64,000 bases of DNA, from contig CAZYBS010000002.1 in the NCBI GenBank assembly GCA_964645245.1, positions 18,161 through 82,160 of the forward strand. The letters are read 5' to 3'. This document shows positions 14,905 to 39,047 of the stretch, one piece after another (within the stretch, counting starts at the first letter, position 1; the number at the start of each line of letters is the position of its first letter). The position numbers and the translations under genes are program-made. The stretch comes from an uncultured Candidatus Saccharibacteria bacterium (lineage in GTDB: Bacteria; Patescibacteriota; Minisyncoccia; Phycocordibacterales; UBA9973). Under the pieces are notes generated by a model. The model was not told the origin of the DNA. It ran no database searches and saw only the letters and a list, made by a program, of their open reading frames with translations.

Positions 14905-16407
14905 ATGCCAAAACCGGGTCGAGTGCAAATAATCAAATATGGTCCGCCGCCGCCGGAATTGCCGGTTTTTGGAAAGATAGACCCGACCGAGGTGTCTTTC
15001 ATCGGACGTACAAATTACGTTGCCGCATTAGAGGAGAAAAAGTTTATATTCGGCATCAAGCGCATAGACCGCCGCCGGCATCTTTATATTGTCGGCAAGT
15101 CCGGCGTTGGTAAAACCAAACTTCTGGAACTTCTTATCCGTCAAGATATAACCTATGGCCATGGATTATGCCTGATTGACCCGCACGGCGATGTGATGGA
15201 GGCAATACTGGACTATATACCCAAGGAACGCATAGAAGATGTTTGCATTATCAACCCGCCCGACGTTGATTTTCCGGCCTCTTTCAACCCATTGGCGAAT
15301 GTTGATCCGATGTTTAAGTTTCAATTGACTCAAGGGTTGATTGAAGTTTTCCAAAAACAATTCGGAGCCAACTGGACGCCCAGGCTGGAGCACGTTTTCC
15401 GCTTTACCTGTTTGGCCTTGCTGGATTATCCGCACGCGACGATGCGCGGCATGATTTCCATGCTGACCGACCGAAATTACCGGCAGAAGGTGGTGGAGTA
15501 TATTACCGACGATATGGTAAAAAGATTCTTCGCTATTGAATTCGCCGACTGGTCGGAGAAGTTTGACACCGATGCCATTATCCCGCTAGTTAACAAGCTC
15601 GGGCAATTCCTCTCCGACCCGCTCTTGCGCAATATCTTCGGCCAAAAGCAGAACAAGATAGACATCAGTAAGCTGATGAACGAGCAAAAGATTATTCTAA
15701 TTAATATCTCCAAAGGCCGTCTGGGAGAAGAAAATTCCTCTTTTCTTGGTTCTATCTTTCTGACTAAAATAAAACAAGCGGGTATGGAGCGCGCGGCTAT
15801 ACCAGAAAAAGACCGTACGGACTTTTATCTATACGTGGATGAGTTTCACAATGTCGTTACTCAGACCTTTGAAAACATTTTATCCGAGGCCAGAAAATAT
15901 GCTTTAAGTTTAACTATGGCCCATCAATATGTTGGTCAGGTTATTCCCCGAGTTCACCAAGCGGTACTTGGTAATTGCGGTAGTGTGATTACTTTTCGTA
16001 TTAGTGGTGAAGACGCAGTTAAAATGAAACCGGAATTTGCGCCTTTGTTTGACGTGAAGGATATGATCAATCTGGCTGTCGCGGAATTTTATATAAAAAT
16101 GACCATTGACGGTGAGTCCTATGACCCATTTTCGGCTGAAACACTTCGAGTTCTTCCCCCGACTCATCCCTCATACAGAGAAGAAATTATGGCGGCCTCT
16201 CGCCGGAAATATTCAATACCAAAAGACGACGCGGCCAAGCTTATTGCCGAGGAAGAGGCGACAATCATCCGAAGCGCCGAAGAGAAGGCAATTATCGAGA
16301 GCAAAGCTAAAAGAAAAGCAAAAGAAAAAGGAGAAGATAATGGCGAAGAAGATGAAAAAGAAAAACCTAAAGCAAAAGCTTCACAAGAAGCCGAACCCAT
16401 GATATAA
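14905..16407 (+). CDS. Soluble VirD4/TraG/TraD-superfamily P-loop ATPase, paralog B
   Basis: Walker A IVGKSGVGKT, DPHGD, Walker B FYLYVDEFHNV, and ARKYALSLTMAHQYVGQV. It is colinear with paralog A over the first ~400 aa and has a Lys/Glu-rich C-terminal tail. Confidence 0.7.
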   Translation: MPKPGRVQIIKYGPPPPELPVFGKIDPTEVSFIGRTNYVAALEEKKFIFGIKRIDRRRHLYIVGKSGVGKTKLLELLIRQDITYGHGLCLIDPHGDVMEAILDYIPKERIEDVCIINPPDVDFPASFNPLANVDPMFKFQLTQGLIEVFQKQFGANWTPRLEHVFRFTCLALLDYPHATMRGMISMLTDRNYRQKVVEYITDDMVKRFFAIEFADWSEKFDTDAIIPLVNKLGQFLSDPLLRNIFGQKQNKIDISKLMNEQKIILINISKGRLGEENSSFLGSIFLTKIKQAGMERAAIPEKDRTDFYLYVDEFHNVVTQTFENILSEARKYALSLTMAHQYVGQVIPRVHQAVLGNCGSVITFRISGEDAVKMKPEFAPLFDVKDMINLAVAEFYIKMTIDGESYDPFSAETLRVLPPTHPSYREEIMAASRRKYSIPKDDAAKLIAEEEATIIRSAEEKAIIESKAKRKAKEKGEDNGEEDEKEKPKAKASQEAEPMI

Positions 16408-17524: not shown

Positions 17525-18130
17525 ATGTTCCCTGAATATATAATTTATATTGCGATTCCTGTCAGCTTGGCAGCCTATTTTTATTATTTTAAAAATATTT
17601 TTTACGGGCAGACCAAGCCGAATTTAGTTTCTTGGTTTCTTTGGATGTTAGCTCCATTTATCGGAGTATTTTTCCAGCTTAAAGCTGGAGGAGGTCTTGC
17701 TGCCTTACCGGTATTTTTAGCCGGTTTCGGGCCTCTTTTGGTAATACTTGCTTCTCTTTGGAATAAAAATGCTTACTGGAAAATTACCAGATTGGATATA
17801 ACTTGCGGGATACTGGCAATGCTCGCCTTAGTATTTTATATTCTGACTCATAATTTAGGAATATCAGTCCTTTTTGCTATATCAAGCGATGGTTTAGCAG
17901 CTGTCCCGACACTTGTAAAATCTTGGAAATTTCCAGAAACTGAAACAGCGACAGTTTATCTGGCAGGAATTTTCAGCAATACTTTAGGATTACTCATTAT
18001 AAAAAATTGGATTTTTTCCATTTATTCTTTCGGTATTTATTTTATAGTAATGAATATAGCGATAGTATTTTGCATATACCGCAAAAAGATTTTTAAAAGT
18101 GAGCAAGGGGAGTCCTTGCTCAAGTTTTAG
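17525..18130 (+). CDS. Hypothetical integral membrane protein
   Basis: 201 aa with 5-6 predicted TM helices. No recognisable motif. Confidence 0.45.
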   Translation: MFPEYIIYIAIPVSLAAYFYYFKNIFYGQTKPNLVSWFLWMLAPFIGVFFQLKAGGGLAALPVFLAGFGPLLVILASLWNKNAYWKITRLDITCGILAMLALVFYILTHNLGISVLFAISSDGLAAVPTLVKSWKFPETETATVYLAGIFSNTLGLLIIKNWIFSIYSFGIYFIVMNIAIVFCIYRKKIFKSEQGESLLKF

Positions 18131-18135
18131 TAAGC

Positions 18136-18163
18136 TTGTATTTTATCATTAATATGTTATAAT
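18136..18163 (+). promoter_or_regulatory. Candidate sigma70-type promoter TTGTAT-16-TATAAT for the GC-rich gene
   Basis: TTGTAT at 18136-18141 and TATAAT at 18158-18163. Confidence 0.3.
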
Positions 18164-18200
18164 ACTAGAGTAATACGTTCTTTAAAATCTTTACGAAATT

Positions 18201-18244
18201 GCCACAGCAGAAAGTATCTTAATTTTAGGATTCTTTCTGCTGTG
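18201..18244 (+). promoter_or_regulatory. Perfect 14-bp inverted repeat (GCCACAGCAGAAAG / CTTTCTGCTGTGGC) in the leader of the GC-rich gene; a GCCACATGTGGC palindrome follows at ~18271-18282
   Basis: Read directly from the sequence. No U-tract follows, so it is more likely an operator or RNA structure than a terminator. Confidence 0.4.
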
Positions 18245-18305
18245 GCGAAACCCATGTTGGGCTAGCTATACAGCATGCCACATGTGGCAGAAAGGAGGTC
18301 GAGAC

Positions 18306-18929
18306 ATGTCTCGATACCTCGAAGGCACCACTCACCAACTGTGTGAACAACTGCAGGGGGCTGGCTTTAAAGAGAACGAAGTACATGTTCTCGGAGACAG
18401 ATCCCGCCTGGATCGTATTCTTGCCGAAATTCGTACTGGTGTAGTAATCGGTTCGTCGCCGGACTTGGACTCAATCAATCCAGTTCTGGTCGTGGACCGC
18501 ACTAAGGCGCCGGTTTACCCAAGGGCCATGACTGGTGGGCTCGTGCGACCCGATCTTGAGCTCACCGGGCCTGATCGTTTCAGCATCAACCATACGTTGA
18601 CTTTTCCCTTTACGACGTCCGAACCTGCGCTGGGGCAAGAGGTCTACGATAGGTGGATGAAGGACGATACGCCTCAAAGATATATCGACGGGTACGTCTC
18701 CCTGATCGACCTGATCGCGATTCGGGCCAGGGGTCCGATCTTTTACCACCTTCATTTTAGCGGAATGAAGCTGGTCGCCATGAAGTCAGCCGGTAAGTTC
18801 CACGAGAACGGGTCCGAGTTGGTCCGTGTACCATATTTGTACGAGGCAAAGAAATGTGTTCACCGTGGGTGGAGGTGGCTTGGGCACACGTTCACTCAAG
18901 AATACAAAGCGCTTCGTATCGTGACCTAG
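18306..18929 (+). CDS. Hypothetical protein encoded in a GC-rich island (probable start at the second ATG, with AAAGGAGG SD)
   Basis: ORF 18282..18929. The internal ATG at 18306 is preceded by AAAGGAGG-N7. Codon usage is GC-rich, unlike the neighbours. No recognisable family. Confidence 0.55.
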   Translation: MSRYLEGTTHQLCEQLQGAGFKENEVHVLGDRSRLDRILAEIRTGVVIGSSPDLDSINPVLVVDRTKAPVYPRAMTGGLVRPDLELTGPDRFSINHTLTFPFTTSEPALGQEVYDRWMKDDTPQRYIDGYVSLIDLIAIRARGPIFYHLHFSGMKLVAMKSAGKFHENGSELVRVPYLYEAKKCVHRGWRWLGHTFTQEYKALRIVT

Positions 18930-18966
18930 TAGTCTATACTTGTGGGTGTAATAGTTTAAACTCTCA

Positions 18967-19000
18967 GGCCGCGCGGCGTCACTCTGTGACACGCGCGGCC
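18967..19000 (+). terminator. GC-rich hairpin after the island gene (GGCCGCGCG...CGCGCGGCC)
   Basis: 9-bp perfect GC stem extended by GTCAC/GTGAC; only a weak T-tract follows. Confidence 0.4.
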
Positions 19001-19073
19001 TTCTCAATTTAATTAAATCTTTGCCTCGCCCGTAGGTCTATGGCCGAGGGAAATTTTTTGCGCTTTTAAAAAA

Positions 19074-19871
19074 CTATTTTAAAAGAGACCAAACAAGGTA
19101 GCATAAATACAGAAATGCCAGAACTACTAGTAGTTTCCTTAAATATTCCTCTGGGATTTTTTGGACGTGCTTAGTTACGAAGTGCGCACCAATAAAGGTT
19201 CCTACCCATAAAGTTAAAACGTATGGCCAGGCCAAAAGACCAGCAAGCGCAGTCATAATTATAGAAAAAATTGTAGTGGGCACATAAATTATGTTTGTGA
19301 TGCCAATTCCCTCCACCACTTTCATTCTAAGCAAACTAGAATAAGCAATTTTCTGGAAGGTCCCTGCTCCTACACCACTAACATTCGCATAGAGGCCTAA
19401 CCCTAGCATGATACTGCCTATTAAAGGATATTGTTTGCCGTTAATGCGCATCTCTTCTAAATTTCTAGGGGCCTTATTCTTGGACACTAGTATGTGTATT
19501 ACTAGAAGTGAAAGAGCGATGATAAGCAAATAGCTCAAAAGAGTGGCAGAAATTTTTGTAAGAAAAATTGTGCCGATAATTCCACCAATTAAAAAAGGTA
19601 AGCCAAGGAGGATGATTAATTTTTTATTACCCCAAATACTTTTTGGTGAGGCACTTACCGCTCCAACGCTTGACCCCAAACACCCCGCAATGTCAGTGGC
19701 AATCACTGTTGGTAATGGTATTCCTAAAAAAAGAAGAGCAAATTGAATTAGAATTCCTCCACCTCCCAAAACTACAGCATATCCCTCAGCGATTATTCCA
19801 GCTAAAAAGATAACTGGGAGATGCCATAAATGGAAAAAAGGTGGAATAAAATTTATAAAAAAGTTATACAT
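19074..19871 (-). CDS. TauE/SafE (DUF81) family membrane exporter
   Basis: 265 aa polytopic protein with the LAGIIAEGYAVVLGGGGILIQFALLFLGIP motif typical of TauE/SafE. Confidence 0.6.
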   Translation of the reverse strand: MYNFFINFIPPFFHLWHLPVIFLAGIIAEGYAVVLGGGGILIQFALLFLGIPLPTVIATDIAGCLGSSVGAVSASPKSIWGNKKLIILLGLPFLIGGIIGTIFLTKISATLLSYLLIIALSLLVIHILVSKNKAPRNLEEMRINGKQYPLIGSIMLGLGLYANVSGVGAGTFQKIAYSSLLRMKVVEGIGITNIIYVPTTIFSIIMTALAGLLAWPYVLTLWVGTFIGAHFVTKHVQKIPEEYLRKLLVVLAFLYLCYLVWSLLK

Positions 19872-36070: not shown

Positions 36071-36118
36071 CTGATTAAAGTATTCTAATATTCTATAGAA
36101 TTGTAGAATGGAAATATT

Positions 36119-36159
36119 AAAGGGACGGATTGTCGTTTGACAAATCCGTCCCTTTGCGT
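36119..36159 (-). terminator. 12-bp perfect hairpin AAAGGGACGGAT-N13-ATCCGTCCCTTT, likely the terminator of the minus-strand GNAT unit
   Basis: Read directly; on the minus strand it is followed by TTTAATATTT. Confidence 0.5.
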
Positions 36160-36189
36160 TGGCCAGCGCGATGTCGGCCTTTTATCCGT

Positions 36190-36270
36190 TTACTTCTTCG
36201 GTTTGGGTGGTTCGGGAGCCTTCGGTGGTTGTGGTTTTGTGTCCTCGTCGTCTGGGCTCATGTAATACAT
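36190..36270 (-). CDS. Possible 26-aa Pro/Lys-rich peptide (MYYMSPDDEDTKPQPPKAPEPPKPKK) with a perfect SD
   Basis: AAAGGAGA lies 7 nt upstream of the ATG on the minus strand, inside the GC-rich island between the GNAT gene and the hairpin. Confidence 0.2.
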   Translation of the reverse strand: MYYMSPDDEDTKPQPPKAPEPPKPKK

Positions 36271-36331
36271 GGCTTTTATCTCCTTTCAATCAGATCCAAT
36301 CCGAAGGTATTGGTAACGGTAGCTTTCCTTT

Positions 36332-36976
36332 TTACTTTTCTTCGGACTCTAGTGGTGGAACGAGTCTATAAGCATCACGATACAGCTTATAGAGTAGCTC
36401 AACCGAGTCGCGCCTATAGTAGATTCCATCCACGTTTGCGCGAATCGCCCCCGGCAGGATCCCGACGGAGCGGAATCCTAGCTTGTGGAACAACTTGAGT
36501 GTCACCGTGTGGAAACGAGCCACAGATACGGTGGCAAGTTCAGCGCCGGATTCCTCAGCGTAGCGATCGAGAATCTTTGTCGCCGTAGTTGCCGATAGAC
36601 GTCCCCTGAAATCCGGGTGGACTACACCTAGCGTAAAATCCACTGAGAGATTCAGAGAATCCGTGCGCAAGAGTGCAGAACCAGCGATATGCCCTTCTGA
36701 CGTTTCAAGCGCGAAAACCTCATGTCCTTCCATCGGAAGGTTGCCGTACCACTCAGGTTCCAGAAGGAACCCGAACGTACCTCGATAGAGTTCCGGGAAT
36801 CCTTTTGCCCATACGTCAGCTAGCGTTTCCGCTGTCTCCCTGCTTACGTTGTTGAGTCGCTTGATTGTAGATCCGCGCCCCAAGGATTGTGGATCGAACG
36901 TGGTCCAATTCCACCGCCCTTCCTCCCATGGTTTTACTGGCGTATTGTACAGTTTAAAGTTTCTTCCCAGTTCCAT
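36332..36976 (-). CDS. GNAT-family acetyltransferase-like protein (GC-rich island)
   Basis: VHPDFRGRLSATTATKIL...FHKLGFRSVG resembles GNAT motif A. The start is assigned to the internal Met (MELGRN...) preceded by AAAGGAGA; the ORF extends to 37045. Confidence 0.5.
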   Translation of the reverse strand: MELGRNFKLYNTPVKPWEEGRWNWTTFDPQSLGRGSTIKRLNNVSRETAETLADVWAKGFPELYRGTFGFLLEPEWYGNLPMEGHEVFALETSEGHIAGSALLRTDSLNLSVDFTLGVVHPDFRGRLSATTATKILDRYAEESGAELATVSVARFHTVTLKLFHKLGFRSVGILPGAIRANVDGIYYRRDSVELLYKLYRDAYRLVPPLESEEK

Positions 36977-37268
36977 AGCTTCTCCTTTCAAAGAACAGAT
37001 TTGTCGTCTCGGAACATCCGAGCATACATGAAAGAACAAAAACACCAGCCGAGAGGGCTGGTGTTTGAGTTGTAAGTTGAGTTTTAGTTTTTTTACAGCG
37101 CAAATATCAGCCTTCTAATGGAAAGCTGGTAATAAGCATTTAATATTGAAGTATTTCTTTGTTGTTGAATATTACTATTCATATTTCGCATACTAGCATG
37201 TTTTGATAAAAAGCGCAAGCGAATTTGTAGAAGTCATAATTCCGCTTATACTATCTACTTCACTCAAT

Positions 37269-37686: not shown

Positions 37687-37761
37687 GGCTTTGTAAGTAA
37701 TAAAAATTTTTGGAGGAAGGGAAGGGTGATGTGCCCAACCCTTCCGCCAATGTATCTATCT

Positions 37762-38817
37762 CTATCTACTGGCTGTGATTACCGTCAGGATGCTTTCGCG
37801 CTTACCGCACCGCTGGAGGTTCCTTGCCAGTTCTGTTGCAGCTAGAAAGTTGGCACCCGCAGAGCTTGCTCCGTCGATACCAAAGGTCTTCAGTAGCCGA
37901 ACACCTTCTCTCGCTTCTTTGTCCGTAACGATACGAACTTGTTCTACGCTTGGCAGATGGTCAAGAACAAGCCTCGTCGGATCCCCGACGCCCAAACCTT
38001 CAATACCGATAACCTTTGATACTACTCGCGGGAAGTCGATATTGATGTCGAACCAGTTCTCCGGACTTCTTTGTGGATGGCAGCTGAGCGAAACTATCAT
38101 CCCCGCAGTTTCGTATGCCCGGAGGGCTTTTTCGACAGCTCTCTTTTTGACCTCGTACTTGTCTCTGGCACGCAAGTAGGCATGCCAGAGAGTTAAGGTT
38201 GAACCCACCCCTTCAACGGCTATGATTCGGGTATGAGGATTCACTTCGCGCAACGCCAATCCAATTCCGAAGAGGGTACCACCCGTGCCGACCCCAGCCA
38301 CGAGGTGGCTAGGTGCCCCGAGTCGTTCCACGATAGCCCTCCCGAATGTTCGTTTCTGGATATCGAGGATGACCGGCTGCTCGTGCTGTTCGAGCAACAT
38401 GTATCCTCTCTTCCGGCAGAGCTTTTTTGCCGTGGTGAGGCGACCGGTTCGGCCTTCGCGACGCGGGGTTTCCATAACCACTTCAATACCCATCGTCTTG
38501 AGTTTCTCGACGACGGGCCGACTGGTTTCGACGTATACAACCGCGGTGACCCCGACTCTGACCCCGAGTTCGTCTACGGCAAGTTTTACACCTTGTACGG
38601 TGTTTCCTCCGCCGACAACGACTACGGATCGAGTTGTATCCTTGATCTTCCCGGTGTCAAGGTAGTGCGCTAGCAGGCACTTGCCGATGGAGGTTTTGAC
38701 TCCAGCCGGCAATGTGTCGGCCCGAAAGAGAACAATTTTTTGTCCATGCCTTTTGGTGGTGCACAAAGGGACAGACAAAGCCCTTTCGTACTCTCTCTGT
38801 ACTGTCTCTTTGTACAC
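37762..38817 (-). CDS. PLP-dependent cysteine synthase / CBS-like (fold type II) enzyme, GC-rich; GTG start
   Basis: GVGTGGTLFGIG glycine loop and VVVGGGNTVQG. The start codon is GTG, 5 nt after AAAGGAGG. Confidence 0.6.
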   Translation of the reverse strand: MYKETVQREYERALSVPLCTTKRHGQKIVLFRADTLPAGVKTSIGKCLLAHYLDTGKIKDTTRSVVVVGGGNTVQGVKLAVDELGVRVGVTAVVYVETSRPVVEKLKTMGIEVVMETPRREGRTGRLTTAKKLCRKRGYMLLEQHEQPVILDIQKRTFGRAIVERLGAPSHLVAGVGTGGTLFGIGLALREVNPHTRIIAVEGVGSTLTLWHAYLRARDKYEVKKRAVEKALRAYETAGMIVSLSCHPQRSPENWFDINIDFPRVVSKVIGIEGLGVGDPTRLVLDHLPSVEQVRIVTDKEAREGVRLLKTFGIDGASSAGANFLAATELARNLQRCGKRESILTVITASR

Positions 38818-39047
38818 CTTTGCCTCCTTTCAAAAGATGCTCCGTGGCGGCAATTTTACCCGCCACGGAGCAAGCCGACTCGACGAGACTACCGGACGTG
38901 CATGTGCACGTGCCGGCGCGCCTTGCGGCTTACACGGATGCGCATAAAGAACAATCCTTTCTGAGCTCCTAATAGACAAGAGGTTTCTCGTCCTAGGGCT
39001 CTTGAAATTTTCTTTTGCTTTAAAGAAAACTCGGAAGAGCCCAGCGA
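38818..39047 (-). promoter_or_regulatory. Structured GC-rich leader of the CysK-like gene
   Basis: 11-bp perfect hairpin (38840-38850/38860-38870) plus UCUUUU immediately before the RBS, and a second GC hairpin at 38896-38920. Confidence 0.35.

Follow-up and report, generated by a model that had tools for sequence, protein, structure and literature searches.

The stretch of DNA analysed here (referred to as the window) comprises 64,000 nucleotides (nt) of contig CAZYBS010000002.1 (positions 18,161 to 82,160, assembly GCA_964645245.1) of an uncultured Candidatus Saccharibacteria bacterium and contains a GC-rich island that is one transcription unit, consisting of a promoter, a structured leader, a gene for a protein of 207 amino acids (aa) and a terminator. 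The coding sequence occupies positions 18306-18929 of the + strand, with an alternative longer in-frame start at 18282. Sequence comparisons place the encoded protein in a family of targets of diversity-generating retroelements (DGRs), and its leader in a class of hairpin-bearing leaders of the Candidate Phyla Radiation (CPR) that is defined in this study. The segment that corresponds to the hypervariable region of the DGR-linked relatives bears no signature of hypervariation in the window gene. With some reservation, we favour the view that this gene encodes a stand-alone, long-resident DGR-type ligand-binding protein that is no longer hypermutated and has kept the leader of its class.

A family of DGR targets

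Sequence and profile searches of Pfam, NCBIfam, PADLOC, PHROGs and the Protein Data Bank (PDB) yielded no match to the 207-aa protein, and a word-indexed search of 5.8 billion proteins returned, besides the protein itself, a single relative (62% identity). However, an exhaustive HMMER search retrieved 93 representatives at E <= 1e-3, most of them 150-220 aa long and matching residues ~55-205. The initial annotation, which had seen no recognisable motif in the protein, is borne out with respect to Pfam, NCBIfam, PADLOC, PHROGs and PDB sequences but has to be amended in that the protein does belong to a family. None of 69 aligned family members contains a Pfam domain, and Foldseek returned no significant match in PDB or BFVD. 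When the window gene is compared with its 62% orthologue, differences are commonest at codon position 3, less common at 1 and least common at 2, whichever segment is considered, which is the behaviour of translated sequence; this pattern, together with the 93-member protein family, argues against the island being a GC-rich structured non-coding RNA rather than a protein gene.

The connection with DGRs comes from the family member P0007, encoded in locus L004, which is 31% identical to the window protein over residues 12-204 (E = 4.8e-14). The variable region (VR) of this gene, located at 900-1028 of L004 and comprising its last ~130 nt, is repeated as a template repeat (TR) at 1358-1486 with 15 mismatches, 14 of which fall at TR adenines, and a 331-aa RVT_1 reverse transcriptase (RT) gene lies downstream of the TR. 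Moreover, all variation among four sequences of the P0007 90% cluster is confined to ~18 positions within the last 40 residues, and residues 1-208 are the same in each of them. The VR/TR pair, the RT and the cluster variants together represent the defining behaviour of a DGR and identify P0007 as a DGR-diversified variable protein, so that the window protein has a homology match to a protein shown to be diversified in this way. A TR also accompanies L036, a locus of the same protein family, and the leader of L004 is recognisably homologous to that of the window gene despite the 31% protein identity. In cassette-linked members of the class, the last ~40 residues are rewritten from the TR by the RT, and the window gene and its two sister lineages would most likely encode a variable protein that has been fixed, or 'retired', and whose binding specificity is settled.

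Three parts can be distinguished in the window protein: an N-terminal three-helix module (residues 1-45, window 18306-18440), a putative C-type-lectin-like domain (residues ~55-207) and, at the end of the latter, the VR-equivalent segment (residues ~160-207, 18783-18926), all encoded on the + strand. The last of these aligns to the P0007 VR and is the homologue of the region that is hypervariable in DGR-linked members of the family. The C-terminal domain is probably a divergent C-type-lectin ligand-binding fold, which the available fold evidence suggests, and the protein would accordingly be expected to bind a ligand. In this respect, a DGR survey (PMC8144416) describes CPR DGR targets as lacking recognisable domains and as possible carriers of new C-Lec variants. 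The N-terminal three-helix module resembles the N-terminus of the L012 gene, whose family shares the class leader but is otherwise unrelated (hhalign E = 2.8e-4, probability 41%), and it has been entirely lost from the L003 protein, in which the leader and the first five codons are kept. This suggests that the module is a shared, dispensable adaptor. Besides the small proteins, there are longer ones with one or many copies of the family domain, namely P0004 (658 aa), P0005 (1780 aa, with 17 matched stretches) and P0006 (792 aa), of which P0004 and P0006 are located on contigs of up to 72 kb.

The cassettes themselves display additional conserved sequence. The spacer between the stop codon and the TR, ~300-400 nt long, is itself conserved; it lies at 1034-1357 in L004 and has equivalents in L017, L036, L038, L040, L042, L059, L072, L097, L103 and L109, and a second spacer sequence type is found in L049, L055, L060, L069, L075, L082 and L110. 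Post-VR repeats (..GGGACTCGGTC..CTTTGAACTTTGTCC..) are found within the spacer, as are a terminator hairpin and a promoter. Directly 5′ of the TR there is a conserved element of ~200 nt (GGTAGTAGGCGAATA..CCGAAYCCAGTATCCATAC..GACACTTCAAAAAATGAAGATACTTGGTG) that probably forms the 5′ portion of the template RNA of the DGR; no Rfam family matched at gathering score in the cassette loci scanned (L004 and L017).

The leader hairpin and the gene class that it marks

The leader hairpin that defines the class is located at 18199-18251 on the + strand and consists of a basal stem (GCCACAGCAGAAAG / CTTTCTGCTGTGGC), a covarying apical stem and the tail GAAAC. Its core is the 14-bp perfect inverted repeat that the initial annotation had pointed out, with arms at 18201-18214 and 18233-18246, which can be extended to 22-nt arms with 91% complementarity. 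The window contains a single copy of it. A covariance model of the class matches the window at 18195-18291 with 88.7 bits on the + strand and 49.6 bits on the - strand, the third best of 190 matches; in general the + strand scores ~40 bits above the - strand, and the opposite strand still reaches ~45-50 bits. Compared with shuffled sequences, the predicted folding energy is low both for the leader (z = -6.3) and for the 3′ region of the unit (z = -4.7). Sequence conservation between the window and the orthologous locus L001 is concentrated here: positions 18201-18345 are ~93% identical and positions 18298-18327 are 100% identical, with 37-73% per 30-nt bin in the coding body.

Two patterns derived from this hairpin were used to retrieve further loci. 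Pattern 1, GCAGAAA-N(14-30)-TCTGCTGTGGCGAAAC, matched 19 species genomes of GTDB, most of which are titled as Patescibacteria-type organisms (Parcubacteria, Paceibacterota, Kaiserbacteria, Saccharibacteria), the remainder being several titled only 'bacterium' or 'uncultured bacterium' and two with other phylum labels (Nitrospira and Gammaproteobacteria); the match in Vreelandella (L010) has none of the surrounding features and looks like a chance match. Pattern 2, a 5′-arm pattern applied to metagenome contigs, matched 81 contigs from groundwater, aquifer and sediment. No match to the leader pattern was found in viral contigs. The loci share a stereotyped layout, in which a promoter is followed by a (G)GTYCTTTGA box, ~15-25 nt, the hairpin, 40-100 nt, a Shine-Dalgarno (SD) sequence and an open reading frame (ORF), and the SD and ORF lie just downstream of the hairpin in 84 of 103 loci. 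The window unit has a layout identical to that of ~100 other loci, with its promoter, GTYCTTTGA-like box, hairpin with the 3′ arm TCTGCTGTGGCG, SD and GC-rich ORF of ~200 aa, and by these sequence features we assign it to the leader-hairpin class of CPR. The ORFs of the class have a median length of 209 aa (39 unique complete genes) and fall into several families without mutual match in profile comparisons, and in some of these families the N-terminal helical module recurs; at their C-termini, the ORFs resemble DGR variable regions in being rich in W, D, G, R, Y and C.

The class is physically associated with DGRs. An adenine-biased TR, usually starting 300-400 nt after the stop codon, accompanies 30 of the 74 complete ORFs, and an RT, 44-66% identical to that of L004, is found in 31 loci, the order within the cassette being target, TR, RT. 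When only the loci with at least 2.5 kb of downstream sequence are considered, 13 of 30 have a TR and 18 of 30 an RT, and therefore a substantial fraction of class genes stands alone, as the window gene does. Two leader genes can occur together in one genome or contig: L018 and L020 belong to the same metagenome-assembled genome (MAG), CAIKZD01, in which a DGR cassette was found only at L018 and L020 is cut off ~300 nt into the gene, and two leaders each are present in L084 (92-186 and 6362-6447) and L086 (2807-2899 and 6688-6784). Such genomes are consistent with one DGR serving several leader-marked targets.

As regards the remaining elements of the window unit, the features described by the initial annotation (ORF, GC contrast, promoter, inverted repeat, palindrome, SD and 3′ GC hairpin) are all present, and only small corrections of coordinates are required. 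The promoter, read directly in the sequence at 18136-18163 (+ strand), is composed of the -35 box TTGTAT (18136-18141), a 16-nt spacer and TATAAT (18158-18163), and it also has an extended -10 TG at 18155-18156 (TGtTATAAT). A consensus scanner did not call it because the -35 box matches the consensus at only 3 of 6 positions. Every homologous locus has a promoter at the same relative position, TTGACA-N17-TATACT-like and at the same distance from the hairpin. The 5′ box GTTCTTTAAAA (18177-18187, + strand; class consensus (G)GTYCTTTGA) lies at or near the 5′ end of the transcript, and it is conserved in this position in L001, L003, L004 and most of the ~100 class loci. Immediately after the main hairpin there is a small second hairpin, CCCA-TGT-TGGG (18251-18261, + strand), in which L001 shows a compensatory change of the CCC/GGG pairing to CTC/GAG; similar small hairpins (CCGTTCGGG, CCCATTCGGG) follow the main one in many loci, and the RNAalifold consensus structure does not include this element. 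The palindrome GCCACATGTGGC (18277-18288, + strand) is clade-specific, being identical in L001 and L003 and absent from the other class loci. The consensus SD AAAGGAGG (18291-18298, + strand) is separated by seven bases from the ATG at 18306.

A further element, not listed by the initial annotation, is the 16-nt perfect palindrome TCGAGACATGTCTCGA (18299-18314, + strand), which has the start codon at its centre and, in the predicted fold, places the AUG in a loop. It is 100% identical in the window, L001 and L003 despite protein identities of 45-62%. This palindrome and the first five codons (MSRYL) are kept in all three clade members, even in L003, from which the N-terminal domain that follows has been deleted, and in L004 a different palindrome surrounds the start codon of that gene. 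Shortly after the stop codon of the window gene lies the 3′ box ACTTGTGGGTGTA (18938-18950, + strand), which L001, L003 and the re-assemblies of both have in identical form and no other locus has. The unit ends with a GC-rich 3′ hairpin, a probable terminator, at 18966-19001 (+ strand), whose arms (18966-18975 and 18992-19001) form 10 bp plus an inner 5 bp rather than the 9+5 bp initially counted; it is nearly identical in L003, and L001 has a different hairpin instead.

Residence, diversification and leader function

What is the origin of such a GC-rich gene? The initial annotation interpreted it as a recent acquisition from a high-GC donor, and either such an import or an assembly chimera now appears very improbable to us. 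The compositional contrast is indeed strong: the gene has 53.4% GC, 61% GC at third codon positions and 23% A against a window mean of 39.3% GC (z = 2.7, the top 1.1% among 624-nt windows of the 64 kb), and stretches above 50% GC occur elsewhere in the window only at 36.1-37.0 kb and 37.7-39.0 kb. In addition, the unit has its own promoter and terminator, and the DGR literature takes atypical GC as a sign of transfer (PMC5758913). Nevertheless, syntenic orthologues occupy the same site in two related lineages, L001/L005 with 62% and L003/L029 with 45% protein identity, values that exclude near-identical strains. Both are convergent with cysS, which is followed by the AI-2E transporter and L21, and have a block of DnaJ and small-membrane-protein genes upstream; it is the immediate neighbours that differ, a CN-hydrolase/PAD pair lying upstream in the relatives and a TauE gene downstream in the window. 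The orthologues are equally GC-rich (~52-53% versus 37-41% in their flanks), so the best homologues are found in close low-GC relatives, precisely the outcome that the initial annotation had named as contradicting its interpretation. Because synteny beside cysS holds in three lineages, these comparisons point to a long-term resident and not to a recent foreign insertion. A chimera is further opposed by the identical window locus in two independent assemblies, Logan SRR8863434 and ENA ERZ27284378.

Composition is also less telling in this class than it would be for a single gene. Class genes have 56.0% GC against 49.0% in their flanks (n = 39), or 53.5% against 39.7% in the 12 low-GC hosts, and their GC content of ~53-60% correlates only weakly with that of the host (r = 0.34, 39 genes across L001-L112); amelioration seems not to act on them. 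Regarding signs of mobility, the window contains no tRNA, no integrase or transposase adjoins the gene, and the sole flanking direct repeat is a weak 24-nt pair with 79% identity. An IS200/IS605-like element, an integron cassette (attC) and a retron were each rejected, given the lack of transposase, integrase and RT, this single imperfect repeat, and the fact that there is one hairpin per gene, always placed between promoter and SD. What stands of the acquisition hypothesis is that the unit is compositionally distinct, has its own regulatory elements and is kept as a block among differing neighbours; what does not stand is that the acquisition was recent.

The other two GC-rich islands of the window (36100-37050 and 37700-39000, 51-54% GC) contain, on the - strand, an ORF of 237 aa without Pfam match (36332-37045) and a gene for a PALP-family pyridoxal-phosphate enzyme (37762-38817), respectively. 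Both have a strong SD and a hairpin-rich leader or terminator, and neither has the class leader hairpin. TrwB/VirD4-like coupling-protein ATPase genes are found near the class gene in the window (14905-16407) and in L025 (16751-18727), where they adjoin large ORFs without Pfam match.

Is the window gene still diversified? Neither a TR-like copy of its 3′ part nor a DGR-type RT (tblastn with the L004 RT as query) was detected in the 64-kb window or in the 10 kb beyond each of its ends, a span of ~82 kb that corresponds to positions ~42.8-124.9 kb of the 212.6-kb contig. Likewise, no RVT_1 gene was called and no TR was found on the orthologous contigs L005 and L029. The gene might nonetheless be the target of an active cassette located >28 kb upstream, >56 kb downstream or on another contig that still rewrites its C-terminal segment, perhaps rarely. 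This would be in line with several observations. About half of the leader genes with enough flanking sequence have no adjacent TR or RT, and a VR-type signature is present in other genes that stand alone, for example L014 and L021; MAG CAIKZD01 and contigs L084 and L086 hold two leaders each, the former with its only detected cassette at L018; and remote targets are documented (PMC5758913). We consider this unlikely on account of the segment itself. The VR-equivalent is the best-conserved part of the protein across species (73-75% identical to L001, versus 47-61% elsewhere), and its changes fall mostly at codon position 3: the last 45 codons of the window gene and L001 differ by 0.18, 0.16 and 0.47 per site at codon positions 1, 2 and 3. 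The corresponding values for the same segment of DGR-type pairs are 0.29/0.22/0.07 (L014-L021), 0.13/0.27/0.18 (L060-L082) and 0.11/0.20/0.18 (L017-L042); the gene bodies of these control pairs evolve normally, and their pattern is opposite to that of the window gene only in the VR segment. The window segment thus follows ordinary purifying selection and lacks a hypervariation signature. Furthermore, the residues at positions equivalent to hypervariable ones include K, E and Q, which mutagenesis of AAY codons should not be able to produce; the assemblies contain no sequence variants, the L003-type protein being identical in four of them; and the post-VR repeats (..GGGACTCGGTC..CTTTGAAC..) of cassette-linked and other stand-alone class genes, which may act as recognition signals, are absent at the window gene, where only the clade-specific ACTTGTGGGTGTA box is present. 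The lack of a TR or RT nearby together with purifying selection on the former variable region makes a fixed variable protein, most likely retired from diversification, the reading that we retain.

As to the leader, we infer that it is most likely a 5′ element of the mRNA that is recognised in a sequence-specific manner. The sequence of the 13-bp basal stem hardly changes: among 67 unique hairpins, 64 have the same 3′ arm, and the basal pairs comprise 838 Watson-Crick, 17 G·U, 4 A·C and 12 other combinations. Such near-invariance across lineages whose RTs are only 44-66% identical to that of L004 implies sequence-specific recognition. The constraint is also asymmetric: of the 54 hairpins in the metagenome set, whose ascertainment is symmetric because the pattern could be matched on both strands, 14 have a changed 5′ arm and 3 a changed 3′ arm (p ~0.006, simple binomial). 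According to the mechanism that we propose, the hairpin would act in the sense-strand mRNA as the binding site of a conserved factor, and this factor would control the expression or the stability of the mRNAs of variable proteins. More tentatively, the hairpin and the 5′ box might constitute an undescribed structured RNA class specific to the variable-protein genes of Patescibacteria DGRs, whose invariant 3′ arm would be bound by a conserved factor, possibly a DGR component, that marks or co-regulates all variable-protein transcripts of the cell; we regard this as a possibility that falls short of being probable. With regard to known RNAs, Rfam 15, which includes RT-1 to RT-19 and riboswitches, gave no match at gathering score in the window and 10 related loci apart from tRNAs in the related loci, and a scan of 18050-19100 at E <= 10 returned only miRNA-hairpin noise. 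In the library of papers searched, the full arm motifs were not found, a 13-nt substring matched only in an unrelated human methylation study, and keyword searches gave nothing on such a leader in CPR DGR targets. An SD-sequestering riboswitch or thermosensor was rejected, since the SD pairing probability is 0.47 in 67 leaders compared with 0.65 in 21 control genes of the window.

A hairpin conserved in this way could alternatively work at the DNA level, as a cruciform or single-stranded hairpin for a recombinase or for the replication or retrohoming machinery, and mark a mobile cassette or a DGR substrate. The sequence of both stem arms is conserved far beyond the needs of pairing, the hairpin is near-palindromic and scores ~45-50 bits on the opposite strand as well, and the genes around the conserved unit differ, all of which would suit such a role. 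Even so, we hold it to be improbable, as the hairpin is always placed between the promoter and the SD of the downstream ORF and in one orientation, the 3′ arm is fixed whereas the 5′ arm tolerates U·G, with wobble pairs outnumbering A·C pairs 17 to 4, and no transposase or integrase is nearby. Known DGR target signals, such as the IMH (initiation of mutagenic homing) sequence and hairpin of BPP-1, sit at the 3′ end of the VR, and the leader hairpin is 600-700 nt away from the VR. A palindromic operator in B-form DNA was discarded as well: the spacer between the arms varies over ~14-32 nt, and the consensus structure contains three covarying apical pairs with double changes. This apical covariation, together with the variable loop length, speaks for an extruded hairpin and against a B-DNA operator.

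Several points weigh against the interpretation of a retired gene with an mRNA-level leader. In the unbiased set, G·U pairs exceed A·C pairs by only 7 to 4 as support for a role in RNA, and the test of the leader for SD sequestration was negative, so that the function given for it here is a putative one. The identical sequences in several assemblies possibly come from the same or related samples. The searched ~82 kb are part of a longer contig and other contigs exist, where a remote DGR may be located; Wu et al. (2018, PMC5758913) describe DGRs whose targets lie at distances above 100 kb. Finally, a stand-alone resident gene is not by itself an explanation of why the gene is still GC-rich after long residence.

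Comparison with known systems and implications

The closest known counterparts are the DGR variable proteins with a C-type-lectin fold, that is, Mtd of the Bordetella phage BPP-1, TvpA of Treponema denticola, AvpA of Nanoarchaeota and TaqVP. As for the retroelements, the loci resemble the Patescibacteria-restricted cellular DGRs ('DGR clade 2') of Roux et al. (2021, PMC8144416): the habitat and taxon labels of the related loci fit, these being CPR MAGs of groundwater, aquifer and lake sediment, and, in agreement with that study, the target proteins are small and have neither transmembrane nor other recognisable domains. Their cassette order is target, TR, RT, and we place them in this clade provisionally, on these shared traits and not on an RT phylogeny. 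A conserved leader of the target genes is not mentioned in the searched passages of that study. With the remote DGR targets of Treponema (Wu et al. 2018, PMC5758913) the window gene shares its location apart from any RT or TR; unlike them, since they are defined by a match to a TR with A-to-N differences only, it has no TR in ~82 kb and its segment is conservative.

Two kinds of RNA element are also relevant for comparison. Stem-loops at the 5′ end of mRNAs stabilise transcripts or bind regulators, the hairpin of the ompA 5′-UTR (untranslated region) being an example. The class leader is similar in that its strong hairpin precedes the SD, at a distance of a few tens of bases from where the transcript is predicted to start, and differs in that the sequence of its stem is almost invariant, whereas a stabiliser of the ompA type needs structure alone. 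The RNA motifs RT-1 to RT-19 are associated with DGRs and other RTs, RT-10 being located in the TR-RT spacer of BPP-1 (Weinberg et al. 2017, PMC5737381). Like them, the leader is a conserved structured element physically tied to DGR cassettes, but it is found in the 5′ leader of the target gene instead of beside the RT or TR, and it persists on genes without a DGR.

What do these results mean for the biology of these bacteria? A gene that looked hypothetical and foreign becomes a probable ligand-binding protein derived from hypermutated receptors, in hosts presumed to spend their lives attached to other cells and of whose surface and binding biology next to nothing is known. DGR-type proteins can apparently be fixed and kept in the long term without the retroelement. 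The near-invariant hairpin provides a sequence handle that retrieved ~100 loci, whose ORFs are mostly small and GC-rich and of which ~40% of the complete ones have an adenine-biased TR or an RT; stand-alone class genes thus seem accessible to searches that do not start from an RT or TR, and RT-centred surveys (PMC8144416) miss them by design. If the leader is indeed a structured RNA class specific to these genes, the window gene would be a case of a leader element outliving its link with the retroelement, and if the factor that binds it belonged to the DGR, the hairpin would be the first signal on the target side to map to the 5′ end of a DGR target gene. The leader also points to an unstudied layer of regulation or recognition in DGR systems.

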